DNA from: Archaeoglobaceae archaeon | Lineage (GTDB): Archaea > Halobacteriota > Archaeoglobi > Archaeoglobales > Archaeoglobaceae | Direction: 5' to 3' | NCBI GenBank assembly: GCA_027028145.1 | Contig: JALVJV010000010.1 | Location: 6,979-70,978, forward strand | Length of the DNA: 64,000 nucleotides | Shown: positions 1-13,299 of the stretch, one piece after another | How positions within the stretch are numbered: position 1 is the stretch's first letter | How the letters are laid out: every line of letters starts with the position of its first letter | Position numbers and translations under genes: made by a program | The notes under the pieces: model-generated | Told to the model about the DNA's origin: nothing | Seen by the model: only the letters and a program-made list of their open reading frames with translations | The model's database searches: none

Positions 1-590
1 CTCTTTTCATTCACCAATTCGTTATACTCCTTCTGAAGATCCTTAGACAGTTTGTAAGCTTCAACTTCAAGCTCTGTATATGGTTTTGATTTTATTTCCG
101 TTTTCAGTCTGCCTAAAACAACATCTGGTGGTGGAACTGATATATCGTCCTGCCTTCTACTTGCTGCAACCCTTAAACCTGCATCTCCACATATTAATCC
201 TGAGATTCTTCTGCTTCGATGTCTTGAGGATGTATCGTCATCATCGGGATTCCCTACGAAGTTAGAAGCAGCTACATGTAAACCCGCATCACTGAATATT
301 CCTACGCCGGAACTGCCGCCTGAACTTCTCGAAGAACTGCCTCCAGATTTACTACTTGATGAACGAGCATTTACAGCCGCAACGTGTAAACCAGCATCGC
401 TAAATCCACCAAGACCCGACGGAGCACCGCCAGATGGTTTTGATGTTGCATTTGCAGCGGCAACATGTAGTCCAGCGTCTGAGAATCCTCCAAGTCCGGA
501 TGGACTACTTGAGCTTGAAGGAGATGAACTTGATGATCTTGAAATCGAACTGTAATAACTCCTACTTGCAATTGTATCAATATTTACCAT
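1..590 (-). CDS. Partial CDS (first 196 codons; 3' end off-window): Ser/Gly-rich protein with four SDAGLHVAA-type repeats
   Basis: ATG at 590-588, with GGTGAT four nt upstream. I checked every codon down to position 3 and found no stop. It is absent from the ORF track because no stop lies in the window. Repeat units: GLGGFSDAGLHVAA twice, GVGIFSDAGLHVAA, SGLICGDAGLRVAA. Confidence 0.7.
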   Translation of the reverse strand, partial: MVNIDTIASRSYYSSISRSSSSSPSSSSSPSGLGGFSDAGLHVAAANATSKPSGGAPSGLGGFSDAGLHVAAVNARSSSSKSGGSSSRSSGGSSGVGIFSDAGLHVAASNFVGNPDDDDTSSRHRSRRISGLICGDAGLRVAASRRQDDISVPPPDVVLGRLKTEIKSKPYTELEVEAYKLSKDLQKEYNELVNEK

Positions 591-595
591 TTGAA

Positions 596-967
596 TCACC
601 CTTTACGGAATTTTTCAGCTGTAATAGCAAAATTGATCTCCTGCTTGCGGAAAGTCGGTAATTTTTCATAAAATTCCGTTTTTCTCAGCTTCTTTAGAGC
701 GTTGGTGTTAACTTCTCCGCTCTTTGTGAACGGTTTTTCACCGGTTAATTTCTCTATCTTTTTTGCATTCCTTTTCAACCATCTTTTCAACTCACCGGGA
801 CGTTTTATCGCCCTCTGAATCCATCTACGATTACTTTTCGATGTTCTTTCTTTTTTTGTGCTAGAAGGTTTATTTTTAGATCTTGATTTTCTTCCGCCTC
901 TTTTTCTTTCTACCCTCTTTTTTGTTTTTCTTCCTTTTCCTCTCCCTTTACTTTTTCCTCTTCCCAT
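596..967 (-). CDS. Very basic small protein (Lys/Arg/Gly-rich N-terminus), possible nucleic-acid-binding protein of the element
   Basis: 123-aa ORF starting MGRGKSKGRGKGRKTKKRVERKRGGRKSRSK. It abuts both neighbouring genes in the same train. Confidence 0.6.
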   Translation of the reverse strand: MGRGKSKGRGKGRKTKKRVERKRGGRKSRSKNKPSSTKKERTSKSNRRWIQRAIKRPGELKRWLKRNAKKIEKLTGEKPFTKSGEVNTNALKKLRKTEFYEKLPTFRKQEINFAITAEKFRKG

Positions 968-1216
968 TTAACCACCCCACATCAAAATTTTAGTGAATAA
1001 AACAAAGAGAGCAAGTTCGAACCAACATCTTAACGCCAAATCCTTCGTTTTCTCGAACTTCCAAAACTTTAGAAATGCCTCAACATCATCTATTCCTTCC
1101 TTCCGGCAAGTCTCCTCAAATTTCCTAAACTTAAATGCCAAGTTAACTCCAAGCACAAACCACACTCCAAGCACAAATATTCCCAAAAATAACGCTAAAT
1201 CACCCTGAATCTTCAT
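968..1216 (-). CDS. Small two-TM membrane protein (element)
   Basis: ORF 968-1261. The internal Met (MKIQGDLALFLGIFVLGVWFVLGV) at 1216 gives a short overlap with the upstream gene stop at 1200, so I prefer it. Two hydrophobic segments. Confidence 0.5.
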   Translation of the reverse strand: MKIQGDLALFLGIFVLGVWFVLGVNLAFKFRKFEETCRKEGIDDVEAFLKFWKFEKTKDLALRCWFELALFVLFTKILMWGG

Positions 1217-2147
1217 TTTTAGACTCCTCCTTCCTAAAGAATATTTGCATAAATTTCTCAAAATAAATATCAGGAACTCCGATTGGAAAGCCGATATCTA
1301 CCCAGACAAAAGTATCTCCTTTTTTCAAACCGTATTTCTCAGCTAATTTCTTAGGGAATCCAACAGCTTTAGCATATGTATTCTGACTGTGGCAATAATA
1401 GTTTGGATATATATTAAGTGGATGGGTAACATTGTCTGCGGGTATATATACTTCTTTATTATTAGATGATTGATCTATATCAATCTCTTCCTTGGCATCT
1501 CCCCACATTTTGAGTAATGTTTTAGCTTTCCATTCAAGCGCATTCCAACGTTTTTCTTCATATTTTTTATATATTTCATCTGGTATCCAAACATTAAATA
1601 CTTCTATATGATCTTTTTTAACAAATTGTTTAAATAATGGGTTAGTTTTAACTTTGTAGATTTTAGCAGAGCAACGATCTTCATCTATTGGTTCTACCGC
1701 TATTCTAAAGTTTACTTGTTTAAACACACTCTTAACTAAATCATCTATCGGAGATGTGAATATACAACTCGCAGATATGCTTCGTATGGCATTATAAAAC
1801 TCATACAATGCAACCAATGCTCTTCTTTCTTGACCCTTTGACATACTGTATGTTAAACCACTAAACCACATGCCTATGTCATCGCAGGTAAAAACTGGAA
1901 CTCTCTTTCTTCTTTTCACTGAATCAACAATGAAGCTTATTGTCGTGCTAGGATCAACAAATAAATAATTTAATGCCTTATCCCAATCACCGTAAATCTG
2001 TTTCATTATTTTTAATGCGAAAACGGTTTTTCCGGTGCCTTTCCCAGCTTCGGGACTGTAAATATAAAAATCTACAAACCTTTTTGCCCCTTTTGGATTT
2101 TGGTAAGCATATTTGATCATATCGACAACAGTCTTAATTACAGTCAT
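1200..2147 (-). CDS. P-loop NTPase of the element (packaging or transfer ATPase candidate)
   Basis: Walker A SPEAGKGTGKTV near the N-terminus and a Walker B-like VPVFTCDDIG. 315 aa. The C-terminal tail (KKLAEKYGLKKGDTFVWVDIG) looks AbrB-like. Confidence 0.7.
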   Translation of the reverse strand: MTVIKTVVDMIKYAYQNPKGAKRFVDFYIYSPEAGKGTGKTVFALKIMKQIYGDWDKALNYLFVDPSTTISFIVDSVKRRKRVPVFTCDDIGMWFSGLTYSMSKGQERRALVALYEFYNAIRSISASCIFTSPIDDLVKSVFKQVNFRIAVEPIDEDRCSAKIYKVKTNPLFKQFVKKDHIEVFNVWIPDEIYKKYEEKRWNALEWKAKTLLKMWGDAKEEIDIDQSSNNKEVYIPADNVTHPLNIYPNYYCHSQNTYAKAVGFPKKLAEKYGLKKGDTFVWVDIGFPIGVPDIYFEKFMQIFFRKEESKNEDSG

Positions 2148-2530
2148 TTTTCATCTTCCCCCCAGTAATACACGGGCATATCTATTCTCGAAATGTAACC
2201 TTCCTCAATCAAATCAGGCAAAATCTTAGAATAGTATAGATCATTCATCTTATTCTCCAACTCTACTGCCTCATCAAGCAACTCAGAATACTTGCAGACT
2301 ATCGCCTTTTTTAGCAAGTCTTTAAGTTCGCCTTCGTTTATGTATTCCTTCCTAACATAATCTGATCCGAAAATGAACTTACATAGGCTTATTATTTCGT
2401 TCAAGCAACTCGCCTTGTAAACCAATCCTGCAAAAAATGGTAAATTCTTAGAGATTATGCTAAATTTAAAGTCCAACTGCTCGAACTTCTCTCCGAATAC
2501 TTGTTTTACATCCTGCTCCAACCGATTCAC
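2144..2530 (-). CDS. Hypothetical protein (element)
   Basis: 128-aa ORF with 4-nt overlaps to both neighbours. No motif recognised. Confidence 0.5.
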   Translation of the reverse strand: MNRLEQDVKQVFGEKFEQLDFKFSIISKNLPFFAGLVYKASCLNEIISLCKFIFGSDYVRKEYINEGELKDLLKKAIVCKYSELLDEAVELENKMNDLYYSKILPDLIEEGYISRIDMPVYYWGEDEK

Positions 2531-3327
2531 TTAATCATCCCTCCCAGAAGCTTAATCAGAGTATTTACCTGAGTTTGCACCGTATGAACTGCCTGCGTTA
2601 TCTTACTGATGTAAACGAAGTTGATCAGCCCAAATACGCTCGCAAGAATGCTTATCACTACACAAACGAGCATCAGAATTTGCAGCATCCTAAAGAACTT
2701 CTGAGTGCCTATTGTTGCACCCATTAGCATAGTCTCCGTTAGTAATTGACCCATTGTGACGTCGTCAACAACCCTCAGAGTTCCAAAGCCATCTACACCA
2801 ACTCCTTTAACCTCGTTAAAGCTTACAGTCTTCGGAACACCCTCAATTATAACGTAAACCGGTATTTTCTTCTTTCCGAGTAAACCCTTCTTAGTTAAGA
2901 AATAGACGTCATTCCCATTCCCATCTATCGTTATTGTTTTATTTACAAGAGCTACTCCCTTCGCAATTAGTTTAGGTCTTTGCACACTTTCTCCTTTCTC
3001 GTTCTTTTCTTCCATTAGAACTTCATTAATTTCAATGTATTTACTCAAAGCTTTCACGAATTTGTCGAAAGGAAGAATATCCATGCCATAAGCATTGCAG
3101 AAATCAAAATAGCGTTGATAAATTTGCTCGACCGGAATATTTCCGTTACCTCTTTCTAAATTAGCTTGAAGGAATATTTCTAAGCTATTGTTCATTCTGG
3201 CTGTTCTCAGATATCCTCTTCCATCTTCGGCAATTATTACATTATCTTTTAGCTTGATTCCTTTTTTCGTGTATATTTGACCGTTCCCAATCACTAGCAA
3301 CTCTACTTTTTCCCCTTTAATTTTCAT
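2527..3327 (-). CDS. Hypothetical protein with C-terminal membrane anchor (element)
   Basis: 266-aa ORF with a hydrophobic stretch MLQILMLVCVVISILASVFGLINFVYI near the C-terminus. Confidence 0.55.
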   Translation of the reverse strand: MKIKGEKVELLVIGNGQIYTKKGIKLKDNVIIAEDGRGYLRTARMNNSLEIFLQANLERGNGNIPVEQIYQRYFDFCNAYGMDILPFDKFVKALSKYIEINEVLMEEKNEKGESVQRPKLIAKGVALVNKTITIDGNGNDVYFLTKKGLLGKKKIPVYVIIEGVPKTVSFNEVKGVGVDGFGTLRVVDDVTMGQLLTETMLMGATIGTQKFFRMLQILMLVCVVISILASVFGLINFVYISKITQAVHTVQTQVNTLIKLLGGMIK

Positions 3328-3331
3328 ATAA

Positions 3332-3745
3332 TCACCTCTTCTTCATAACCTTCTCGACTACTCCTTTTACAGAACCTACTATGTCGTCCTGCTGAACATC
3401 AGCAGGATAATTGAATGCGCGAGTAGCCCAAGCATAATTTGTAACCATAGCGGCAAAATTACCCATACCAAGCGTTGTAATGCTGTAAGCGCTAAGCACA
3501 TCTCTAACGACCTGCGCAGAATGATAAAAGCCCAAATTCTTTAGAAGGGCTACGACAATTGACTCTCTTCTGATAAAATTAACTCCTTCTTTACTAAGGA
3601 ACGCCCTTGTGATATCTGATGTTACTAAATCCGTTTCCGGTTTGTAGTATTTTTCTTGGAATTGGATGTGACTTACAGCATAATTAAGACTTAGAGGCTC
3701 AACCGAGCTTGTAACCTGATTTGTCACCGCTACCACCTCCAGCAA
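3332..3745 (-). CDS. Hypothetical protein (element); start uncertain
   Basis: 137-aa ORF. The annotated start overlaps the upstream gene by 47 nt, so the true start may lie downstream. Confidence 0.45.
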   Translation of the reverse strand: MLEVVAVTNQVTSSVEPLSLNYAVSHIQFQEKYYKPETDLVTSDITRAFLSKEGVNFIRRESIVVALLKNLGFYHSAQVVRDVLSAYSITTLGMGNFAAMVTNYAWATRAFNYPADVQQDDIVGSVKGVVEKVMKKR

Positions 3746-4022
3746 ACAACAACCCTACGAGTCCTCCAAATATCAAACTAAGCGACGTTATCGTGTCCAA
3801 AGGAGGAGTTAGGACGTTTTCCTCATATGTAAGCCACTCAAAGCTTTGTGATGTGTTATTGTAAACCGCCTGAACATGCGTTATTGTTACTCCCTGCAAA
3901 CTAACCAATCCCGTTAGTATAAGCAATATTCCACCCAAAGCTGCGTAACCTAACGATCTAAATCCAAAAATAGTGAATATCACTCCCATTATTGTTAAAA
4001 AAATGAAAATCGTTAGTTCCAT
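3699..4022 (-). CDS. Small hydrophobic multi-TM protein (candidate virion or membrane structural protein)
   Basis: 107 aa, almost entirely hydrophobic helices (MELTIFIFLTIMGVIFTIFGF..., GGILLILTGLVSL..., LSLIFGGLVGLLFAGGG). Confidence 0.55.
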   Translation of the reverse strand: MELTIFIFLTIMGVIFTIFGFRSLGYAALGGILLILTGLVSLQGVTITHVQAVYNNTSQSFEWLTYEENVLTPPLDTITSLSLIFGGLVGLLFAGGGSGDKSGYKLG

Positions 4023-4026
4023 GCCT

Positions 4027-4383
4027 TCACCTCAGCAATGCAAGCAGTATGCTCACTGCGAAGATCACGGGTAGAACTCCAATAACTAGTGCGGTCATCG
4101 GATCGCTTACATTTACGCTGTTTATCGTGTTGATCATGATTGGCAGCGCAACTCCGACTCCAAGTATTACCATTACAATTATGCCTTTAATCCAATCGAG
4201 CATGTTCACAGTTCCTTTAGTATCCTTGCAAAATGCTATCCAACTCTCCATTGTTGGCTTCAAACCCTTTTCAGCACACCATGCCATGAATTTAGGTGCA
4301 CTCTCCTTCGCCTTTTTGTATAATTCAACTCCCAGTGCTATTGCAAGTCCTATTATTATCCCAGCAATAATAATTTCAACCAA
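4027..4383 (-). CDS. Small hydrophobic multi-TM protein (candidate virion or membrane structural protein)
   Basis: 118 aa with N- and C-terminal TM helices. First gene of the long minus-strand operon. The antisense ORF 4049-4405 is its mirror image. Confidence 0.55.
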   Translation of the reverse strand: MVEIIIAGIIIGLAIALGVELYKKAKESAPKFMAWCAEKGLKPTMESWIAFCKDTKGTVNMLDWIKGIIVMVILGVGVALPIMINTINSVNVSDPMTALVIGVLPVIFAVSILLALLR

Positions 4384-4446
4384 CCCAATTTCACCTCCTT
4401 ACTAACTACAAACAATTATAATGTTTGATGAATATACTATATATTA

Positions 4447-4506
4447 TTCGGATACGATATCAAAACCGGTGGCAGTATTGATACCGAAATCTATATCGTA
4501 ACCGAA
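4447..4506. repeat. Inverted repeat in the element's intergenic control region
   Basis: TTCGGATACGATAT (4447-4460) and ATATCGTAACCGAA (4493-4506) are reverse complements at 13 of 14 positions. They lie between divergent gene starts at 4383 (-) and 4522 (+). Confidence 0.6.
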
Positions 4507-4521
4507 TGACATATTGCAGTA

Positions 4522-4701
4522 ATGCCAAAACATAGGTATATGAAGGAAGGGGATGTTGAGGGGAAAATAAGATTCAAACGCAGTTTGGTGAAATGTAAAG
4601 ATCGTTGCACAATAAATTTGCCCAAATTCGTTAGAAAAATGGGTGATGAGTGTTGGGTAACCATAGATACGATTGAAAAAAGAATTATAATCGAATTCTA
4701 A
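4522..4701 (+). CDS. Small ORF (59 aa), possible AbrB/SpoVT-like regulator of the element
   Basis: ATG 4522, TAA 4699-4701. Sequence MPKHRYMKEGDVEGKIRFKRSLVKCKDRCTINLPKFVRKMGDECWVTIDTIEKRIIIEF; the INLPKFVRKMGD...V.I....RIIIE pattern resembles looped-hinge-helix proteins. It is below the ORF-track length cutoff and is the only plus-strand gene in the element. Confidence 0.35.
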   Translation: MPKHRYMKEGDVEGKIRFKRSLVKCKDRCTINLPKFVRKMGDECWVTIDTIEKRIIIEF

Positions 4702-4933
4702 CGTAGATTTGGTTAATCTCCTCCCAGTTCTCGTCGAGAATTGTTATTTTACAACTCCTTTTATCGTCGTGGATAATTTTATACGACCTCTTTCCGAAGA
4801 TATTTTTCCTGTAAGCTCTTAAAATCCCCACTTCACCGCATTTCGGACACTTCACTATTATCGTGCTTCTCTTTGATCTTGCGTTAAGAACTTTAACGAG
4901 CATCTTCATCAACCTCAAACCCAAGAAAAGCAA
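4685..4933 (-). CDS. Small Zn-ribbon protein (element)
   Basis: CPKCGE ... a single distal C. 82-aa ORF; the true start may be an internal Met (4909 or 4903). Confidence 0.5.
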   Translation of the reverse strand: MLFLGLRLMKMLVKVLNARSKRSTIIVKCPKCGEVGILRAYRKNIFGKRSYKIIHDDKRSCKITILDENWEEINQIYVRIRL

Positions 4934-5120
4934 ATTCGGACTCGTAAGGACATTTCGTGCATTTAAGCTTAAAAACTAGACCCTCGATTTCTTCCCCATC
5001 GATAACCTTAGTTCCGGCATCAATCAATATGATGAGATTCCCTCCGCAACCTCTATGAATCCACTCCCCGTAAAAATCCTTTCCATCATACTGTATTGTA
5101 TCCACTCTCCCTTCGTTCAT
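4893..5120 (-). CDS. Small Cys-rich (Zn-binding) protein (element)
   Basis: HRGCGG ... CTKCPYE. 75 aa, 4-nt overlap with the integrase stop. Confidence 0.5.
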   Translation of the reverse strand: MNEGRVDTIQYDGKDFYGEWIHRGCGGNLIILIDAGTKVIDGEEIEGLVFKLKCTKCPYESEFAFLGFEVDEDAR

Positions 5121-6001
5121 TCTAATTCCTCCAAAAGAGGAAATTTCTCCACAACTCTACTATACCATTCATCCGCCTGCTTAGTCTTAGCCAAATAATG
5201 AGAAGAACCGACCGTAACGCTTGCCCTACCCTGTATAAAATCCGCCACCGATTCCGGAACTCCGTTTAAGATTAAGAAGTTGTAATTCCACTTTCTGATT
5301 GTGTTGGCTGAAACTCTGCTGTGCTTGACCTTCTCCTCGAAATAGTCATAATTTCTGCTTACTTTTTTCAATTCAAGCCAAGAAGGATAGTAAAGCCAAA
5401 ATGCTTTTTTCTTACCTTTGCTAACGAAACCTACCGGATACCTGCAAACCTTCTCGTTCACCTTGACGACATTAGCGAGATCGAAGGATTGAAGAGCCTC
5501 CACAATATGCTTAAGTCTAAGTCCGCTGTAAACTAACAGTAAAAAGATCAATTCAACTTCCTCGTCGTTTATTTTTCTGATGTGAGAATAATATGCTTCC
5601 TTCAGTTCCTCATCGCTGATGAATATCTCCCTCTGCTTATACTTCTTGATGAACGTCTTTTTTCTCCAACGCTCAAGAGGAACGCCGTTTATCGCCGTTA
5701 GTCCTTTTTCTTCCTCCAAGAAGGTAAAGAAGTTCCTTAATCCCTTTGCGAACTTGTCCCCTTTGACGTTTAAAATCAGTTCTTCAAGCTCATCTGGATA
5801 GAAAATGTCACTTATGTTTCTATCGATTGCAGAAATGTAGTCCCTAACTGTGCTTTCGCTTAGTTCTCCTTTCCTAACCTTTTTCTCTAAGAATTTTATA
5901 AATGTCTTTCGATGCTTATTATAGAGTTCCTTTAGTGAGGTCTTTTGTAAGCCCTGACGAGGCGAAGGTCCCCGGTTCGAATCCGGGCGAGCCCACTTCA
6001 A
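5117..6001 (-). CDS. int: Tyrosine recombinase, SSV-type integrase C-terminal (catalytic) part; ORF opens inside the att/tRNA fragment
   Basis: C-terminal ANTIRKW ... GRASVTVGSSHYLAKT fits the HxxR...Y catalytic region. The first codons (TTG, then KWARPDSNRGPSPRQG) are the antisense of a tRNA T-arm and acceptor. There is no in-frame ATG near the 5' end. Confidence 0.8.
   Translation of the reverse strand: MKWARPDSNRGPSPRQGLQKTSLKELYNKHRKTFIKFLEKKVRKGELSESTVRDYISAIDRNISDIFYPDELEELILNVKGDKFAKGLRNFFTFLEEEKGLTAINGVPLERWRKKTFIKKYKQREIFISDEELKEAYYSHIRKINDEEVELIFLLLVYSGLRLKHIVEALQSFDLANVVKVNEKVCRYPVGFVSKGKKKAFWLYYPSWLELKKVSRNYDYFEEKVKHSRVSANTIRKWNYNFLILNGVPESVADFIQGRASVTVGSSHYLAKTKQADEWYSRVVEKFPLLEELE
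5951..5995 (+). other. tRNA 3'-portion fragment (T-arm, acceptor 3' strand and discriminator A) = probable att site
   Basis: CCCGG TTCGAAT CCGGG CGAGCCC A, preceded by a variable-region-like segment. No matching 5' half is present, so this is not a complete tRNA gene. Confidence 0.75.
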
Positions 6002-6128
6002 ATTCTTCTCATATACCGCTACGAGTTCAATAACTTCAGAAGATGATGGTTGAGATGTATGCTACAGACACACCTTGAAAATATTAAAATAATCATCTAA
6101 CGCTCATAAATAGGCTAAGGTGAGATAA

Positions 6129-7448
6129 TTGAGCAACGCTGATGCATTTTATCCTCGAAAATTACTTACCCTCGAAATACTTAGAAGGAAAGACGATGAA
6201 GAGATATCCGAGGTAATTTCAAATCTGGAAAGCCCACTTAAACTTGCTTTAATCCTAATTGACGCTATTTTTTACGAGAATGGAGAACATCTAAAAGATT
6301 GGTCGAACACACTCGATGAAACAAAAAAAGTGGCATTCGGATTAGGTAGCGCAGAAAGATTGTTTATCGAGTTCTCCGATAAGTTAGCAAGATATGGTTT
6401 TTATCAATTTGCATTCCAGCAGTTCGTTCAGAGCTCCTTTAGAGCGAGACAGGGAAAAGCACTTGAAGAAATACTGAAAAAAATTTTGGCAATAGAAGAA
6501 ATGAGAATAACCCCAAGAATTCCGTCTTCAAAAAATGAAAAAATAGAGATTCTCAAAAATACACTTGGATCAAAATATAAGGCTAGGAACGTTATAGATA
6601 AACACGATATAGATATTTTAGCAGAGGTGAATGACAAAGTTGTTATATTACAAATTAGATCGAGAGATGACACTGGTGGCGCTACAGCAAAACCATCACT
6701 CGCCGAATTGTTAAGAAAGCTAAAAGATGAAGAGCTCTTAAGAGATGTTCTATACGTGATATTTATCTGGGTAAAACCAAATACAGAGCCACAGCAGAAA
6801 GTTACTCTTATAAATAAGCTTTTGTCAATGATAGATTTAGAAGATAAACCAGAAATAAAGGAGAAACTCAAGCAGAGTGGAGTTGCGCAGATAAAAGAAA
6901 AATTAAAAGTATGTATTGTCTACGGTGCAGAAGAGCTCATTAAAACTCTGTGGAGCGAATTAGGGGTGGAAGTTGATGAAAAATATAAAGATGTATTTGA
7001 GAAATATAAGAGATATTTGGAATTACTTTCGGCTTGGGACGATCTGTGGCTCGCATATGCAGTTGCAACATTTGAACTTGAAAATCTCGTTAAGTATGGG
7101 AAAACGAACATGAGTGTTTTATCTGATAAGTTACATAATACAAATTTTGATGAATATTTGAAGTCGTCTAAATGCTTGGAGAAGTATGAAGAGTGTAGTG
7201 CTGAAATTTCAAAAGAGATATCACCTATGATAAAGGACGAGGAGGACATAATTCCTTTCAATTCAGTTGGAGACAAGATGAATTACATAAGAGACATAAT
7301 CTTGCTGAGGATCGTCTATGAGCACATAGAAGAAATAGCGGATAGTATTGGAATCGATAATACTACTCGAAAACAAATTAGAAGATTACAACAAAAAGAA
7401 AAAAATAACCCAAAGCAAGCTGATATAACCCAATTCTTTCGAGATTAA
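6129..7448 (+). CDS. Hypothetical protein, candidate restriction endonuclease partner of the adjacent methyltransferase
   Basis: 439 aa, TTG start, 11 nt upstream of the MTase gene. A possible PD-(D/E)xK-like core is HDIDILAEVNDKVVILQIRSRDD. The call rests mainly on adjacency. Confidence 0.4.
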   Translation: MSNADAFYPRKLLTLEILRRKDDEEISEVISNLESPLKLALILIDAIFYENGEHLKDWSNTLDETKKVAFGLGSAERLFIEFSDKLARYGFYQFAFQQFVQSSFRARQGKALEEILKKILAIEEMRITPRIPSSKNEKIEILKNTLGSKYKARNVIDKHDIDILAEVNDKVVILQIRSRDDTGGATAKPSLAELLRKLKDEELLRDVLYVIFIWVKPNTEPQQKVTLINKLLSMIDLEDKPEIKEKLKQSGVAQIKEKLKVCIVYGAEELIKTLWSELGVEVDEKYKDVFEKYKRYLELLSAWDDLWLAYAVATFELENLVKYGKTNMSVLSDKLHNTNFDEYLKSSKCLEKYEECSAEISKEISPMIKDEEDIIPFNSVGDKMNYIRDIILLRIVYEHIEEIADSIGIDNTTRKQIRRLQQKEKNNPKQADITQFFRD

Positions 7449-7459
7449 GAGGTGATCAA

Positions 7460-8668
7460 ATGAGCAACGTCACCCTTGAAAAAAGAGTCGTAATATCATT
7501 CAGAGATATATATCCACGGCTAACAACCACATATGCCTCGCATGGTATGTATTATTATCCCGCAAGATTTATTCCACAGGTAGTTCGCTTCTTTATTGAC
7601 AAGTATACAAAAGAACAAGAGTGGATTATAGACCCATTTGCAGGTTCTGGGACGGTTGGTGTTGAAGCCCTAATGACTAATCGAAATGCTATTTGTATAG
7701 ACTTAAATCCAGTTATAGAACCACTTCTAAAGGCAAAAACTTATCTTCCAGATTGGTGTCCCGACCGGTATTTTAATTTAAAGGATGCTCCAATCTATAA
7801 GCCAAAATGGAGTAGAATTAAAGATTGGTATCCTCAAGAGTTCCTCGAAATACTGGAAAAAATGTGGGGGGTGTATTATGAAAATCCACATCCTCTTGTT
7901 CTGATAGCCCTATTTAAGGTGTCAAGAAGATTCTCATTTGCAGATGATCAAGTTCCAAAGATTTTCCGTTCAAAAAAGAAGAAATCCGAAATCGAAGAAA
8001 TGCTAAAAAAAGGAAATTACGAAAAGATGATACTGGAATTTTTCGAAAAAGCATTAAAGGACGTGTATAAAGCAAGTATGGAGTTCAAACGATATTATAG
8101 AGGAGGCACATGCATAGCAAAAGGCGGCATAGACATCGTAAACTATGAACTCGACAGGGAGGTTAACCATCTTCTAACTTCTCCACCGTATGGAATGGCA
8201 CATGAATACATCCGCTCTTTCAAATTAGAACTCGCATGGTTGGGATATGATGATAAGCAGATTAGAAATCTCGGTAAATTGGAAATCCCTTATCGTCCAG
8301 AGGAGACAATACCAAAAATAGATATACAATCCGATACATATGAAAAATTCTACAAGCGAATAGAAGAGAAGAATCCAAAGATCGTGAAAGTTTATGAGAA
8401 ATATTTCACTTCAGTTTTAGGCGTATTTGAAAGACTTGGAAAACGTATAATTGATTATATAGGTATTTTTGTAGGGAATGCGAGTTTTTCGGGGATAAGC
8501 CCACCCTATGACCAAATCTTTATAGAACATTTAGAAAATTGCGGTTTTGAACACATAACGACATATGTAGATGTAATAAAGAGCAGAAAACTCTTTAGAA
8601 AACGCAAAAATGCGTCCCCTAACGGCATTGAAACTGAAAGCCTTGTAATTCTGAAAGCAAAGAGATGA
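7460..8668 (+). CDS. DNA amino-methyltransferase (N6-adenine or N4-cytosine), alpha-type motif order
   Basis: SAM motif I DPFAGSGTVGVEA (about aa 58) and catalytic motif IV LLTSPPYG (about aa 238), with about 180 aa between them. Confidence 0.75.
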   Translation: MSNVTLEKRVVISFRDIYPRLTTTYASHGMYYYPARFIPQVVRFFIDKYTKEQEWIIDPFAGSGTVGVEALMTNRNAICIDLNPVIEPLLKAKTYLPDWCPDRYFNLKDAPIYKPKWSRIKDWYPQEFLEILEKMWGVYYENPHPLVLIALFKVSRRFSFADDQVPKIFRSKKKKSEIEEMLKKGNYEKMILEFFEKALKDVYKASMEFKRYYRGGTCIAKGGIDIVNYELDREVNHLLTSPPYGMAHEYIRSFKLELAWLGYDDKQIRNLGKLEIPYRPEETIPKIDIQSDTYEKFYKRIEEKNPKIVKVYEKYFTSVLGVFERLGKRIIDYIGIFVGNASFSGISPPYDQIFIEHLENCGFEHITTYVDVIKSRKLFRKRKNASPNGIETESLVILKAKR

Positions 8669-8923
8669 ATTTCTTTATATATACAATATAAGTTAAGTTC
8701 TAAAAACGATTATCAAAAGTGCACGAATTTTTGGCGAGTGAATAAATTTATACCTAAAGGTGAAGCGGAGGAGTATATTAAAGAGAAGAGAACGCTTTTG
8801 CGAGCGTTAAGAAACGTAAAAGATTAATGAACCAAATTCAATCTCCAAGCTTGTAAGTTTTCGGTATTTAAAAACGAATTAAAAAGCGAAAAGCTTAAAG
8901 AATAGCTTACAGAAGTGCTTTAG

Positions 8924-9616
8924 ATGACAGTTGTAGTTGAAACTACGGAAATTTACGCTCACGATTTTCATCTGGCCGTATTCGGATCGATTAGGCCGAT
9001 ATTATGTGCTCCAGAATACGTTAGAAGAATGAGAAGGCATTATTACTTTGATATTGAAAAAATCTTAAATTGGGATGAGGAAAAGAAAAATAAGCTCATA
9101 GATTTCTTAGTAGAAGTCGTTTCTGCTCCGAACTTTTATGATGAAGACTTTGAGTTTTGGCTTGAGGAAGTCGAAAGAAAGCTTCAAGAATTAAAGGTAT
9201 TTGAAGAATTTAACCGTCTTAAAGGTTATCTTGAGCGTATAGATCAAAAACAAAGGGAGAAAATCGTAGATATAGCTGTAAACAGAATTATGAGTAGCAT
9301 CGATACAATCTTAAGGGAGTTTGTCTATCAGATGCCGAGCGTTGATGAAAAATCGTTAAAGGAGTTGTTTGTTGTGGGATCGATGCTACGAGTTGTGAGA
9401 AGACTTTTGGAATACTATCGGAGATCGAGAGACAAGAAGATTCTAACCCTCGCTACGGTTTTAATCTTAAGATTTGCGGCCTATGTCAGGGGAAAGATAG
9501 GAATTAATGACTTAATGAGGGACATGAGTATAAGCGTCAGTCATCTTCGTGAGGGGATCCTATCGGATGATACATTTGGGGACATCGTATGCAATATGCA
9601 ACAGATACCAACATAG
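8924..9616 (+). CDS. Hypothetical helical protein
   Basis: 230-aa ORF overlapping the downstream PIN-like ORF by 28 nt. No motif recognised. Confidence 0.5.
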   Translation: MTVVVETTEIYAHDFHLAVFGSIRPILCAPEYVRRMRRHYYFDIEKILNWDEEKKNKLIDFLVEVVSAPNFYDEDFEFWLEEVERKLQELKVFEEFNRLKGYLERIDQKQREKIVDIAVNRIMSSIDTILREFVYQMPSVDEKSLKELFVVGSMLRVVRRLLEYYRRSRDKKILTLATVLILRFAAYVRGKIGINDLMRDMSISVSHLREGILSDDTFGDIVCNMQQIPT

Positions 9617-9984
9617 TTTTCGGAATTATCAATAAAGCCGATCGATTAAACCCTTATTCCGAGAAATTGATAAAATGTCTTTCAGGAAAGCTCTTTATTC
9701 TCTCTTCTGTGGCCCTTGAGCTATGTCAAAGGTTTCCGGAAAAGGTTTACGATGCCATAGTTCCGGTTTTAGAGTTTTATCGATCAGTCCTGTTGGAACC
9801 AATTCCAGAGTCCGAACTCGAAAAGCTTGAAGAGGAAAAATTGAAAGAGTTGATAAGAACACACCCGAGAATGGTGAATTTTTACAAGCTCGCCTTTGAG
9901 ATAGCTAAGAAAACCCGAATGGAACACGGGATCGAAGGAGCAATATTTGGTTTGATGGATTACTACAGTGAAATAAGCTCTTGA
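9589..9984 (+). CDS. PIN-like domain protein, N-terminal part (possibly interrupted gene)
   Basis: N-terminus MQYATDTNIVFGII is a typical PIN first acidic motif (DTN). The ORF lacks the distal PIN acidic motifs, which appear in the next ORF. Confidence 0.45.
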   Translation: MQYATDTNIVFGIINKADRLNPYSEKLIKCLSGKLFILSSVALELCQRFPEKVYDAIVPVLEFYRSVLLEPIPESELEKLEEEKLKELIRTHPRMVNFYKLAFEIAKKTRMEHGIEGAIFGLMDYYSEISS

Positions 9985-9994
9985 TAAATTAGAG

Positions 9995-10216
9995 TTGATC
10001 AAAGAAAAGACGGCCGATATTCGTTTTAAAGACGATCAGGATAGAGGAATATTCTACGATTTTGTTCTAAATTTTGAAGGAGTGACCGCTATTTTTATTA
10101 GTGATGATGAAGAATTCGTTAAAAAAGCGAACAGAGCTTTAGATTCTCTAAAGGGTTATTTGAGCGTCGAGGGTTTGGTTTTTAAAAGGTTGAATGAATT
10201 TCTAAAAAATTGCTAA
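9995..10216 (+). CDS. Possible C-terminal part of the same PIN-like domain, in another frame
   Basis: DDQDRGIFYDFVL and FISDDEEF resemble the third and fourth PIN acidic motifs. It starts (TTG) 10 nt after the previous stop, in a different frame. Confidence 0.35.
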   Translation: MIKEKTADIRFKDDQDRGIFYDFVLNFEGVTAIFISDDEEFVKKANRALDSLKGYLSVEGLVFKRLNEFLKNC

Positions 10217-10324
10217 AAACTTAACGATTAGCCTATTGGCTCTCAAGTTAAACTCGGCCATTGCAATCCACTCTGCTGTTTTAATAGGAATGTTATCGAT
10301 CATTCTGAAAATGGATTCGTCATG

Positions 10325-11422
10325 CTATTTCAAAACTCCCAACTCCGTTAACCTTTCCGGCAAATAGACATCGGTAACGTAATCCAAACCGTATTTCGCC
10401 AAAGCCTGCTGTTCCGACTTTCTACCCAACTCAAGCTGGAGCTTTATTTCCTTCTGCCAGAAATCGTCGCTGAACCTTGGATCGGACAGAATGGAGTTCA
10501 ATGCTCTCACGTCTTCATCGGTAAGCTTATCCGAGGGAAGCTTGTATTTAACTATGTCCGAAGGTCTAATTCCGACGAATTTTGCCGAAGGTGTGGCGAG
10601 ATATTCCGAAAGGTGAGCGGACTTTATCGATCCGTAAGCTATAGATGCAAATATCCTGTAACTCCAAGGATCACCGTCGGTGAAGACAACCACTGGCAGA
10701 TTTAACTCCGTATTGAGCCTTCTCAAAAGCCTTCGGGTGCTCCTCGCCGGCTGACCTTTTAAATGGACTATAATCGCGTTGAACTTCTCATCGAATCCGT
10801 TCTCCACAAGTCTATCACGCATACCTCCCGTTTCTATGGCTATTACGAAATCCGCATCGCATTCCAAGAACTCCAAGTTGTCGACGTTCGTCGGAATCTG
10901 ATAACCTCCCTCACCTACATCATCTTGACAGTGGATAACTCTCTCACCCCTTCTGGTCTTCTCCCTTATTCTGATAGGCCCAAGCACCGTCGCACCGTCT
11001 TCCTCTGGACGAACGTTGAAAGCTTCTCTCTGAAACCCCGTTAAAATCTCCAGATCTTCGATGAGCCTGTCGCTCTCAAGCTGTTCGTTGAACTTCGCGA
11101 TTCCCCAGTTTTCTGATATGTAGTATAGCTCTCTTAACGTTGAAGATTTGTTCTGCTTCATCTGCTCCTTCAGGAATCCGATAACGTAAACCATCCTCAA
11201 AAGCTGATAAGCCCCCTTAACGCTCTTTGCGGATCTCGTGGACTTCCTGCTTCCGTAAACCCAAACTTCGGATTCCTCGCTGAACTCGATGTTCTGCTTA
11301 GTTCTCGTTGTTATCTTTATTTCCGGAATCTTTCCCTCCTTCATCTGATTGTAGATTTCCTCGACAATGCTGAGAAGGGATCGAAGTGCGGACATCTTAA
11401 AATGCTTATCGAGGTATTTCAA
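10325..11422 (-). CDS. top6A: DNA topoisomerase VI subunit A (Spo11 family)
   Basis: [11 protein letters not shown] (catalytic Tyr region), Toprim [10 protein letters not shown] and [13 protein letters not shown]. 365 aa. Confidence 0.93.
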
Positions 11423-11470
11423 AATACTATCGATCGAAAAATAGTTTTAACCGAACTCGAACGGACGATC

Positions 11471-12457
11471 ATGAAGAAAAAGATCGTCGTTATTCCCGGT
11501 GACGGAATCGGAAAGGAGGTAATGGAGGCCGCGATGCTCGTTCTAAAGGAGCTCGATCTCCCGTTCGAATACATCTACATGGAAGCCGGAGATGAGTGCG
11601 CTAAGAAGTATGGAACTCCTTTGCCAGAAGAGACTCTTCAAGCATGCAAGGAAAGCGATGCGGTTCTTTTCGGAGCCGTTGGAGAGACAGCGGCTGACGT
11701 CATCGTGAAGCTGAGGTTCGAGCTCGAAACGTTCGCCAACGTCCGTCCCGCTAAGTCCTTTAGAGGTGTGAAAGCTCTATACGACAACGTCGACATCGTG
11801 ATCGTTAGGGAGAACACGGAATGCCTTTACAAGGGATTCGAGTTTGAATTCGATGGTGTGGCTGAAGCCGTTAGAATTATTACGAGGAAGGGCTCCGAAA
11901 GGATCGCAAGGTTCGCATTCGAGCTTGCGAGGAGGGAGGGACGGAAGAAGGTTACGGTTCTGCATAAGGCCAACGTCATGAAGAAAACTTGCGGATTGTT
12001 TAGAGATGTGTGTAGAGAGGTGGCAAAGGATTATCCGGATATCGAATACAACGAATACTACATCGACGCCGCGTGCATGTATTTGGTGATGGATCCGTGG
12101 AGGTTCGATGTTATTCTTACGACCAACATGTTCGGCGACATAGTAAGCGATCTCGCCGCCGGGCTTGTGGGTGGCTTGGGCTTAGCTCCTTCGGCAAACA
12201 TCGGCGAAAAGCACGCACTGTTCGAGCCAGTTCATGGTTCTGCTCCGGATATAGCGGGAAAGGGAATCGCAAATCCGACCGCAATGATACTATCAGCCTG
12301 CATGATGCTGAAGCATTTGGGATACGTCGAAGAAGCTATTAAGGTTGAGAGGGCTTTGGAGGAAGTTATAGCGGAAGGTAAGACGACTCCCGACTTGGGA
12401 GGAAATTTGAAGACGATGGAGATGGCCGAGGAGGTTGTCAAAAAGCTCAAAGCCTAA
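11471..12457 (+). CDS. leuB: 3-isopropylmalate (or homoisocitrate) dehydrogenase family enzyme
   Basis: MKKKIVVIPGDGIGKEV and NMFGDIVSDLAAGLVGGLGLAPSANIG. About 328 aa. The ORF-track start at 11402 would overlap top6A, so the internal Met at 11471 is preferred. Confidence 0.8.
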   Translation: MKKKIVVIPGDGIGKEVMEAAMLVLKELDLPFEYIYMEAGDECAKKYGTPLPEETLQACKESDAVLFGAVGETAADVIVKLRFELETFANVRPAKSFRGVKALYDNVDIVIVRENTECLYKGFEFEFDGVAEAVRIITRKGSERIARFAFELARREGRKKVTVLHKANVMKKTCGLFRDVCREVAKDYPDIEYNEYYIDAACMYLVMDPWRFDVILTTNMFGDIVSDLAAGLVGGLGLAPSANIGEKHALFEPVHGSAPDIAGKGIANPTAMILSACMMLKHLGYVEEAIKVERALEEVIAEGKTTPDLGGNLKTMEMAEEVVKKLKA

Positions 12458-12498
12458 TTTTTTCGCAATATTAAATTGCTAATAGAGGGCTTGAGAGT

Positions 12499-13299
12499 AT
12501 GAACATCTGGCAGTTCATAAAGAAGTATTACATCGATTCGATAGTTTACAAGACCGGATACAACCCCGTCAACACCGCAACTTGGGCTATAATTCTGATA
12601 GTTGCAGTTTACCTCCTCTACAAGTGGCTGGTTAAGAGGATAAGGATCGACGAGAGGTTCATATACGGAAACATTCCGTTCATAATCTTCGGTGCGAGCG
12701 TTAGGGTTGTTGAGGATGCGGGATTTCTAAAACCGCCGATAAGCTATCTTTTCATGACCCCTCTAATAGAGTTCCTAATCTTCGCGATCGCTTTGCCTAC
12801 GCTCATCTTAAGCATAAAACTGAGAAAGGACAGGTATTGGATTCACTACGGCTTAGCTGGAACGGTTTTGGCTGTAGCAACCCTCATCCTTCTGCTGGTA
12901 AATCTGAAGGTAAAAAACTGGTTCGTCTTTCCCACCGCTCTGGCTATGGCTTCGGCGTTCACCCTTGCCTACCACTTCGGAACGGCTAAATTTGCCAAAC
13001 ATATGCATAATAAGTTGAGCGAGATGGTCTTCTTCGCCCACATGCTCGACGCCTCGGCAACTTTCTTGGGCATCCAGTTCTTGGGATACTGGGAGCTTCA
13101 CGTGATTCCAAGGCTTCTGATATCGAACTTCGGACCTTGGATAATGATCCCCGCTAAGGTCATTCTGTTCTTGGGTATACTGTATGTTCTGGACAAAGAG
13201 GAGGACGAATCCCTCAAGAACTTCATAAAGTTCGTCCTAATCGTCTTGGGCTTGGGACCGGGCTTGAGAGATTCTCTGAGGATGACGTTTGGCGTTTGA
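12499..13299 (+). CDS. Polytopic membrane protein (recalls archaeal DUF63-type proteins)
   Basis: 266 aa with about 7 hydrophobic segments. The family assignment is from memory only. Confidence 0.5.
   Translation: MNIWQFIKKYYIDSIVYKTGYNPVNTATWAIILIVAVYLLYKWLVKRIRIDERFIYGNIPFIIFGASVRVVEDAGFLKPPISYLFMTPLIEFLIFAIALPTLILSIKLRKDRYWIHYGLAGTVLAVATLILLLVNLKVKNWFVFPTALAMASAFTLAYHFGTAKFAKHMHNKLSEMVFFAHMLDASATFLGIQFLGYWELHVIPRLLISNFGPWIMIPAKVILFLGILYVLDKEEDESLKNFIKFVLIVLGLGPGLRDSLRMTFGV

Follow-up and report, generated by a model that had tools for sequence, protein, structure and literature searches.

A probable fusellovirus-like, spindle-shaped provirus at tRNA-Val(GAC) in a deep-sea member of the Archaeoglobaceae

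In a 64,000-nt stretch of DNA from an Archaeoglobaceae archaeon (assembly GCA_027028145.1, contig JALVJV010000010.1, here C10:6979-70978; hereafter the window), we identified the right-hand half of an integrated element at window 1-6032, which is probably a temperate spindle-shaped (fusellovirus-like) provirus residing in the tRNA-Val(GAC) gene of this deep-sea host. The genome assembly comprises 24 contigs and 1.52 Mb at ~45% G+C, and the element, at least 14.5 kb in total, consists of C16:64055-65588, a gap and C10:1-12928. Searches against Pfam and PHROGs gave three firm assignments in the element, namely the integrase, a B251-family ATPase and a VP2-domain protein, and profile searches pointed to a fourth protein as a remote homolog of spindle-virus capsid proteins. 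A preliminary description made from the letters of the window had already proposed an integrated element with an SSV-type integrase at a tRNA-derived site, and this is borne out; most of the features it listed lie where it placed them in the window's list of open reading frames (ORFs). Its statement that the element has no recognisable capsid or replication homologs no longer holds, since a B251-type ATPase, a VP2 family member and a VP1/VP21-type capsid homolog were detected.

Integration at tRNA-Val(GAC) split the integrase gene

The right attachment site (attR) is an 83-bp segment at window 5950-6032 (plus strand), made up of the last 46 nt of tRNA-Val(GAC) and 37 nt downstream; it begins a few bases upstream of the anticodon, and positions 5951-5995 of the plus strand correspond to the tRNA 3' half. 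A BLAST search of the whole genome found an exact copy, 100% identical, at C16:63972-64054. This copy overlaps a tRNA-Val(GAC) gene at C16:63944-64017 (ARAGORN; Rfam, 67 bits), so the target tRNA is intact at attL after integration. The preliminary description had expected a 45-bp repeat together with an intact tRNA and an integrase fragment further left. All of these exist, with a repeat of 83 bp and on C16 rather than on the same contig.

The integrase fragment Int(C), at window 5117-6001 (minus strand), covers 277 C-terminal residues of an SSV-type ('suicidal') tyrosine integrase whose gene is split, and its first 17 codons are antisense to the attachment site and tRNA. It matches PF16795 (archaeal phage integrase; 3.4e-48, profile positions 2-161 of 161) and phrog_5127 (1.4e-45). 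On C16, a 95-codon minus-strand ORF, Int(N), reads '...VAVYEKNLKWARPDSNRGPSPRQG' into the attachment site and the tRNA, and the same residues, VAVYEKNLKWARPDSNRGPSPRQG, open the integrase fragment at window 6001. When the element-side flanks were joined in silico, an 82-residue Int(N) and Int(C) met in frame and gave an open 359-residue integrase with no stop. The attachment site lies inside the integrase ORF, and integration split the gene, leaving Int(N) beside the tRNA and Int(C) at 5117-6001. SSV-type 'suicidal' integrases show just such a split gene, as described for pT26-2, and integration of this type inactivates the integrase gene (PMC7253208).

The empty site was found in a congeneric genome, G058 (~94% nucleotide identity), where tRNA-Val and the same 83 bp (2 mismatches) form an uninterrupted attB, and ~200 bp past it comes the homolog of window 10324 onward, a topoisomerase VI A gene. 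Another congeneric genome, G060, carries a remnant at the same tRNA-Val, consisting of Int(N), part of the adjacent gene for a 190-residue protein and the RelE toxin-antitoxin pair of C10:187-838, followed by the same host junction. This order implies that the C16 tail and the C10 head belong to one element. The insertion is recent, with intact ORFs. As to the G060 remnant itself (~9400-10900 of a locus on G060:C203), it is decayed and has neither Int(C) nor structural genes, and the 190-residue protein is PD-(D/E)XK-like.

C16 and C10 do not overlap where the former ends and the latter starts. Each of these two ends resembles sequence elsewhere in the assembly (contigs C21, C13, C12 and C23) at 84-91% identity, and the assembly break is explained by these shared repeats. 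The C16 end is 87% identical to the start of C21, and a ~250-nt non-coding segment upstream of the toxin-antitoxin pair (C10:3-247) has copies at C13:3748-3992, C12:29835-30017 and C23:2030-2081 (84-92% identity). An Rfam search gave no match for this repeated segment and, over the whole element, the tRNA as the sole match. Base composition also sets the element apart: its part of the window has a G+C content of ~33-45% per 500-nt window, mostly below the genome average, versus 43-51% in the host genes past window 10,500.

ATPase, DNA-binding protein and capsid-protein candidates

The ATPase gene at window 1200-2147 (minus strand) encodes a 315-residue AAA+ protein of the fusellovirus B251 ('DnaA-like') family with the Walker A motif GKGTGKT, in agreement with the P-loop NTPase recognised from the letters. 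It matches phrog_5484 (2.3e-27), and hhalign relates it to B251 at 99.9% (E 3.5e-31) and to the thalassapleovirus ATPase at 99.3%. A tblastn search of 50,697 phage and archaeal virus records returned 43 records, all from archaeal viruses: fusello-, bicauda- and guttaviruses and three thalassapleoviruses of Archaeoglobi, the last aligning over 85-87% of the ATPase length. Among 72,556 plasmids (PLSDB), the only match was a 5,705-bp Sulfolobus islandicus plasmid, NC_010011, which we take to be pSSVx. A PDB sequence search with the ATPase profile gave nothing, and a search of genome contigs and viral contigs with the ATPase alignment confirmed no related loci. Always directly upstream of the ATPase gene lies the gene of an acidic 128-residue protein (window 2144-2530, minus strand; no family match), which is kept beside it in Archaeoglobus profundus, in genome G011 and in a plasmid-like element on contig C15 of the same genome. 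Because the C15 element carries a related ATPase without capsid genes, the ATPase would act in replication rather than in packaging.

The protein encoded at window 596-967 (minus strand), described from the letters as extremely basic, has 46 lysines and arginines among its 123 residues. It combines a Lys/Arg-rich tail with a VP2-family DNA-binding domain (residues 48-115), which matches PF25632 Fusello_VP2_Capsid (2.8e-7, 31.3 bits; cut-off 27) and phrog_15706 (1.4e-9). Consistently, hhalign relates it to fusellovirus VP2 at 98.8%, and tblastn matches came from STIV, SSV1 VP2, the VP2-like protein of ASV1 and Thermus phages.

The best capsid-protein candidate lies outside the window. It is an 80-residue protein with a predicted two-helix hairpin, encoded at C10:4819-5061, ~2.2 kb left of the window. 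A first pointer came from small-alignment hhalign comparisons with fusellovirus VP1, which gave 56% for this protein versus 22% for the one encoded at window 4027-4383. A profile of 7 close homologs, searched against 1.84 billion representative proteins, returned 51 matches with E <= 1e-3, all of 69-174 residues and most of 73-97, which share the pattern KGQxTIxGL, helix, P, loop, LIP, helix, Y.RP. Matches to phrog_11172 'virion structural protein' (best 3.8e-7) came from 10 of 48 aligned family members, and matches to Pfam His1_capsid (best 5e-5) from 6. A widened profile (A4) was built from the retrieved members, and 11,501 ORFs of the whole genome were scored with it as decoys. With this profile SSV1 VP1 scored 42 bits, ASV1 and SMF1 VP1 35-37, His1 VP21 30 and the VP3 proteins 15-28, the top decoy reaching 15.9 bits; no score was obtained for the remaining membrane proteins of the element or for those of TPV1 and the thalassapleoviruses. 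The family aligned by hhalign with VP1 at 95.4%, VP3 at 94.2% and VP21 at 91.9%, and the narrow 7-sequence profile also placed SSV1 VP1 above every decoy (E 0.007 vs 0.13). In the reverse search, a hidden Markov model (HMM) built from seven known capsid proteins alone ranked the 80-residue ORF first among the 11,501 genome ORFs (E 0.0035; next 0.12). AlphaFold2 predicted a two-helix hairpin with a predicted local distance difference test score (pLDDT) of 89. The profile comparisons in both search directions indicate that the 80-residue protein is a remote homolog, at superfamily level, of the SSV1 VP1 and His1 VP21 capsid proteins.

Two hydrophobic proteins inside the window had been proposed as capsid-like, and the proposal is half borne out. 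The 118-residue protein encoded at 4027-4383 (minus strand; three predicted transmembrane segments) consists of an N-terminal part and a C-terminal two-helix hairpin. Its family aligns with profile A4 at 93.4% by hhalign and scores 18-21 bits with the HMM, barely above the decoys' best; it was found in the whole-genome capsid-profile search at E 5e-4 and falls outside the top 45 matches of the HMM from known capsid proteins only. It is a weak paralog of the capsid family with an N-terminal extension like that of the VP1 precursor. The 107-residue protein encoded at 3699-4022 (minus strand; three predicted transmembrane segments, two N-x-S/T sequons, 41% identical to its A. profundus counterpart) bears no relation to the capsid profiles (hhalign 0.7%) and is presumably a virion or membrane component.

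A motif resembling the archaellin/pilin signal, [KR]-[GA]-Q, stands directly before the first hydrophobic helix in 39 of the 48 capsid-family members, with the G or A 3-23 residues from the N-terminus in 37 of these, and the archaeal class III signal motif fits 23 of the 48. SSV1 VP1 is cleaved in a comparable K-G↓E context. Some members, such as that of G011, have a 70-residue pro-region ahead of the motif. A more far-reaching proposal, which we regard as rather doubtful, combines a family-level new lineage of spindle-shaped viruses, which would be the second virus type known for Archaeoglobi, with maturation of its capsid protein by the host prepilin (class III signal) peptidase. If so, capsid assembly of spindle-shaped viruses would be tied to the pilin-processing machinery of the host.

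Other genes, relatives and alternative readings

Between window positions 3 and 6001, we counted 12 clear minus-strand ORFs, tightly packed or overlapping; the thirteen genes of the preliminary description are reached only with a 57-residue ORF at 4491-4664, and the run is broken by a single small plus-strand ORF. That ORF (4522-4701, 59 residues) faces the long operon and may encode a small DNA-binding regulator; both its place and its sequence are kept in the A. profundus provirus and in relatives from metagenomes. An AbrB-type fold is not supported for it (hhalign to TPV1 gp28, 0.4%; nothing from Pfam). Between it and the minus-strand operon lies the only sizeable intergenic gap (4384-4521, no strand assigned), which by its position is the presumed promoter or control region. 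Two genes next to the integrase encode CxxC zinc-ribbon proteins, as noted before. The 75-residue one (4893-5120, minus strand) has no family match in Pfam or PHROGs and shares 86% identity over 50 residues with the protein at the corresponding place of the A. profundus provirus; the basic, 82-residue one (4685-4933, minus strand) is probably a regulator, with weak matches only (phrog_33343, 6e-5; PSV ORF131-like, 0.0017, below the cut-off; the SSV1 zinc-finger ORF by tblastn, E 0.002).

Further minus-strand genes are shared with the relatives. The provirus group as a whole keeps a soluble 137-residue protein (3332-3745; identity 67% in A. profundus, 47% in G011), which has no family match. 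The 266-residue protein encoded at 2527-3327 (59% and 34% identical, respectively) has a winged-helix-like middle, with sub-threshold winged-helix matches at residues 50-110, and a C-terminal transmembrane helix. It takes the position of B277 in fuselloviruses and of gp18 in TPV1, to neither of which hhalign related it, and its AlphaFold2 model (pLDDT 59) was too poor for structure search. A 97-residue protein with two predicted transmembrane segments (968-1261) is 44% identical in A. profundus.

The Ser/Gly-rich repeat protein seen to run off the window is 840 residues long, with its N-terminal 199 residues encoded at window 1-599 (minus strand) and the rest at C10:5058-6978. It contains four GxGxFSDAGLHVAA repeats in Ser/Gly linkers, followed by a coiled coil and a Pro-rich part; the C-terminus is poly-Lys/Arg. 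It is 33% identical over 764 residues to an 854-residue protein of the A. profundus provirus, and it resembles TPV1 gp21 in position and size, with a marginal match (E 0.009). Left of the window, the operon goes on with the remainder of this gene, the 80-residue protein and an 895-residue protein, beyond which two genes encode small membrane proteins and a further two small proteins of basic or acidic character, followed by the toxin-antitoxin pair, RelE/ParE. A signal sequence and C-terminal anchors are present in the 895-residue protein, along with a DUF2341 (LamG-type) domain and 36 N-x-S/T sequons; among relatives, its N-terminal half is variable and its C-terminal half conserved. Neither the 266- nor the 895-residue protein matched the phage records by tblastn, and the latter matched none of the 72,556 plasmids. 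For kinship with pT26-2/pTN3-type integrative plasmids, the ATPase and the 895-residue protein served as tblastn queries against this plasmid set, which returned the one Sulfolobus plasmid for the ATPase and nothing for the 895-residue protein.

The surroundings hold other mobile DNA. Directly outside attR, a 4.3-kb low-GC island (window 6033-10316) is missing at the same site in G058 and G060, where host sequence resumes at window 10317-10324. It encodes a 439-residue protein, an N6/N4 DNA methyltransferase (PF01555, 3.5e-13) and a 230-residue protein, contains a PIN-like gene that is spread over two reading frames, and may be an older tandem element or remnant, or a separate island (defence islet). 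The second integrated element of the genome, C15:50-8700, lies in tRNA-Gln(CTG), with Int(N) at 68-283 and, at ~8654-8697, a directly repeated tRNA 3' half (~44 nt, read from the sequence by eye). It encodes a 269-residue ATPase homolog with a C-terminal helix-turn-helix, two copies of the small upstream gene, a 654-residue protein and a serine-recombinase-like gene beside a truncated Int(C). Structural genes are missing, and the element looks plasmid-like. Further Int(N)-like fragments at C19:7198-7380 and C11:30303-30516 (62% and 43-49% identical) adjoin tRNA-Ser(CGA) and tRNA-Asp. The genome bears several SSV-type integration scars, as does A. profundus. The 50 extractable spacers of its clustered regularly interspaced short palindromic repeat (CRISPR) arrays, all of one repeat type, match neither the provirus nor its relatives.

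A syntenic provirus of ~12 kb, collinear gene for gene, is present in A. profundus DSM 5631 (CP001857.1 ~1,417,066-1,429,119). Protein identities range from 33 to 86% (ATPase and 266-residue protein, 59% each; 80-residue capsid-type protein, 68%; a 94-residue protein, 82%). Unlike the present element, it has a different glycoprotein N-terminal half, no VP2-domain protein detectable by BLAST, with other very basic proteins in that place, and an integrase only 29% identical that targets another tRNA; no tRNA gene and no direct repeat of at least 25 nt was found in or beside it. The integrase of the present element is closer to the one encoded by A. profundus pleomorphic provirus 1 (ApPV1; 42%), and integrase genes have therefore passed between unrelated virus groups. 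More collinear copies occur on hydrothermal vent metagenome contigs and a more divergent one in G011. In the latter, the VP2-like gene is separated from the large structural gene by a 454-residue ORF with a radical-SAM-like CxxxCxxC motif (by eye; 11261-12625 of a locus on G011:C33). Capsid-type genes with E < 1e-10 were found in 8 of 96 Archaeoglobi genomes, twice in A. profundus. At the second locus there, two adjacent capsid-type genes at C1:1368364-1368834 (E 1e-4 and 2e-26), arranged like VP1/VP3 in fuselloviruses, point to another provirus of the group.

The only relatives are proviruses and metagenome contigs of Archaeoglobaceae, in keeping with the poorly sampled lineage that had been suggested. 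Badel et al. 2020 (PMC7253208) count five SSV-type integrases in A. profundus DSM 5631, and the provirus of this strain may already have been described. A single virus, of pleomorphic type, has been described for Archaeoglobi (PMC10919331), and the ICTV's 2025 archaeal taxonomy update contains no spindle-shaped virus for this class (PMC12451623). The provirus group is probably a new, family-level lineage of spindle-shaped viruses.

Several points weigh against the reading as a spindle-shaped provirus. The element is known as sequence, with no particle, excised circle or transcript observed, and it is spread over two contigs with a gap between them. Related ATPases in the capsid-less C15 element and in pleomorphic viruses mean that this gene is no proof of a spindle virus. 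The curated capsid models PF06281 VP1_VP3, PF25665 His1_capsid and phrog_11172 find nothing in the genome even at E <= 10, so that the capsid link runs through intermediate sequences and short hydrophobic proteins, for which composition can inflate scores. With the hairpin model as query, Foldseek found no significant match in PDB or BFVD, none lying below E 0.7; the search is uninformative here, as two-helix hairpins are not discriminated. Of the fusellovirus core proteins, A82, C84, B277, C155/C102, C166 and VP4/C792 reached no more than 6% by hhalign against 13 element protein families and gave nothing by tblastn. Among TPV1 and PAV1 proteins, none besides the integrase was detectably related by tblastn or hhalign.

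These points leave room for an integrative plasmid, or a plasmid-virus hybrid or satellite with a few virus-derived genes and no particles of its own, comparable to pSSVx in Sulfolobus. The sole plasmid match of the ATPase, to NC_010011, fits such an element, as does the C15 element with its related ATPase and the same upstream gene. A structural-type block of two hairpin proteins, a VP2-like protein, the 840-residue protein and the 895-residue glycoprotein is, on the other hand, conserved in at least four relatives; typical plasmid replication proteins (primase, MCM, Rep) were not found in the sequenced parts, and the ATPase and the 895-residue glycoprotein, the two proteins searched, have no PLSDB match besides that 5.7-kb plasmid. 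We consider a plasmid or satellite unlikely.

Still less probable is a pleomorphic enveloped virus related to Thalassapleoviridae. The ATPase aligns with thalassapleovirus ATPases over more of its length than with B251, the closest integrase is that of ApPV1, both groups have a similar run of genes (protein, ~120 residues, ATPase, ~90 residues), and the one described virus of the class has this morphology. Yet neither a homolog of the VP4-like fusion protein (tblastn) nor one of the VP3-like membrane protein (tblastn, hhalign) was found, and the hairpin capsid-type protein and VP2 favour the fusellovirus side. A defective or domesticated remnant that no longer excises or forms particles is very improbable: the decayed copy at the same tRNA in G060, the A. 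profundus relative with neither tRNA gene nor repeat and the inactivation of the integrase gene upon integration would suit it, but across their 83 bp the attachment-site copies do not differ, no conserved gene is interrupted, the reading frame is kept when Int(N) and Int(C) are joined, and the G+C content is still mostly under the genome average.

For the favoured spindle-shaped provirus, a life cycle can be proposed. Excision would recreate the integrase gene and a circular double-stranded DNA genome. Replication initiation or genome handling may be the task of the ATPase together with the small protein whose gene lies upstream, and the VP2-like protein would condense the DNA. The hairpin proteins would enter the host membrane, probably after loss of a short leader ending in K-G, and build a lemon-shaped capsid there, with exit by budding as described for SSV1. 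The 895-residue glycoprotein could be the terminal fibre or adhesin that sets host recognition during adsorption, and the RelE/ParE pair would stabilise carriage. The provirus group shows that viruses with an SSV1/His1-type capsid protein also inhabit Archaeoglobaceae. With A. profundus DSM 5631 as a cultivable type-strain carrier, isolating a spindle-shaped virus of a deep-sea hyperthermophile that reduces sulfate becomes a concrete experiment.

Comparison with known spindle-shaped and pleomorphic viruses

Across the element families and their counterparts in fuselloviruses, TPV1/PAV1, His1 and thalassapleoviruses, hhalign related only the ATPase, VP2 and capsid proteins. With Fuselloviridae (SSV1, ASV1 and Sulfolobales Mexican fusellovirus 1, SMF1), the element shares an SSV-type integrase with the attachment site inside the gene and a tRNA target, the B251 ATPase, the VP2 DNA-binding protein and the two-helix hairpin capsid protein (95% by profile-profile comparison). 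It also shares a large glycosylated membrane-anchored protein, comparable to VP4, and the gene order ~270 residues, ~150 residues and DnaA-like ATPase next to the integrase. Unlike these viruses, it resides in a marine hyperthermophilic euryarchaeon and not in Sulfolobales, PF06281 VP1_VP3 has no direct match, and its capsid-type genes lie ~6 kb apart instead of being adjacent.

TPV1 and PAV1, the unclassified spindle-shaped viruses of Thermococcales, come from the same habitat, and the TPV1 integrase is 35% identical to that of the element. The element's order of small membrane proteins, 137 residues, 266 residues with transmembrane helix, 128 residues, ATPase, ~840 residues and lectin-fold glycoprotein parallels TPV1 gp15-gp22 and PAV1 ORF121-ORF676, which encode small membrane proteins, a protein of ~150 residues, a ~285-residue membrane protein, ~146 residues, the ATPase, ~884 residues and lectin-fold (concanavalin/LamG) glycoproteins. 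Behind the positions matched here and in fuselloviruses there is no sequence or profile similarity. TPV1 gp15 and PAV1 ORF121, the membrane proteins in the matching position and the capsid proteins of these viruses, reach only E 0.01-0.09 against the capsid profile (database of ~100 sequences). TPV1 differs in carrying an MCM helicase, which is absent from the element.

Thalassapleoviridae (AvPV1, ApPV1, GahPV1 and ThalV2) infect the same host class and share the ATPase over nearly its full length, the closest integrase and, in some members, RelE. A tblastn search of all element proteins against three thalassapleovirus genomes, including VP4, matched only the integrase, ATPase and RelE, and hhalign against their VP3-like, 460-residue, 120-residue and ATPase groups matched the ATPase alone. 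The VP3/VP4 pleolipovirus morphogenetic module is absent from the element, whereas the hairpin capsid protein and VP2 are absent from these viruses. The provirus group links three virus sets of little shared sequence: its hallmark genes are those of fuselloviruses, its gene order is like that of TPV1/PAV1, and it has its ATPase and integrase in common with thalassapleoviruses. Such links should be useful for reconstructing module exchange between spindle-shaped and pleomorphic archaeal viruses.

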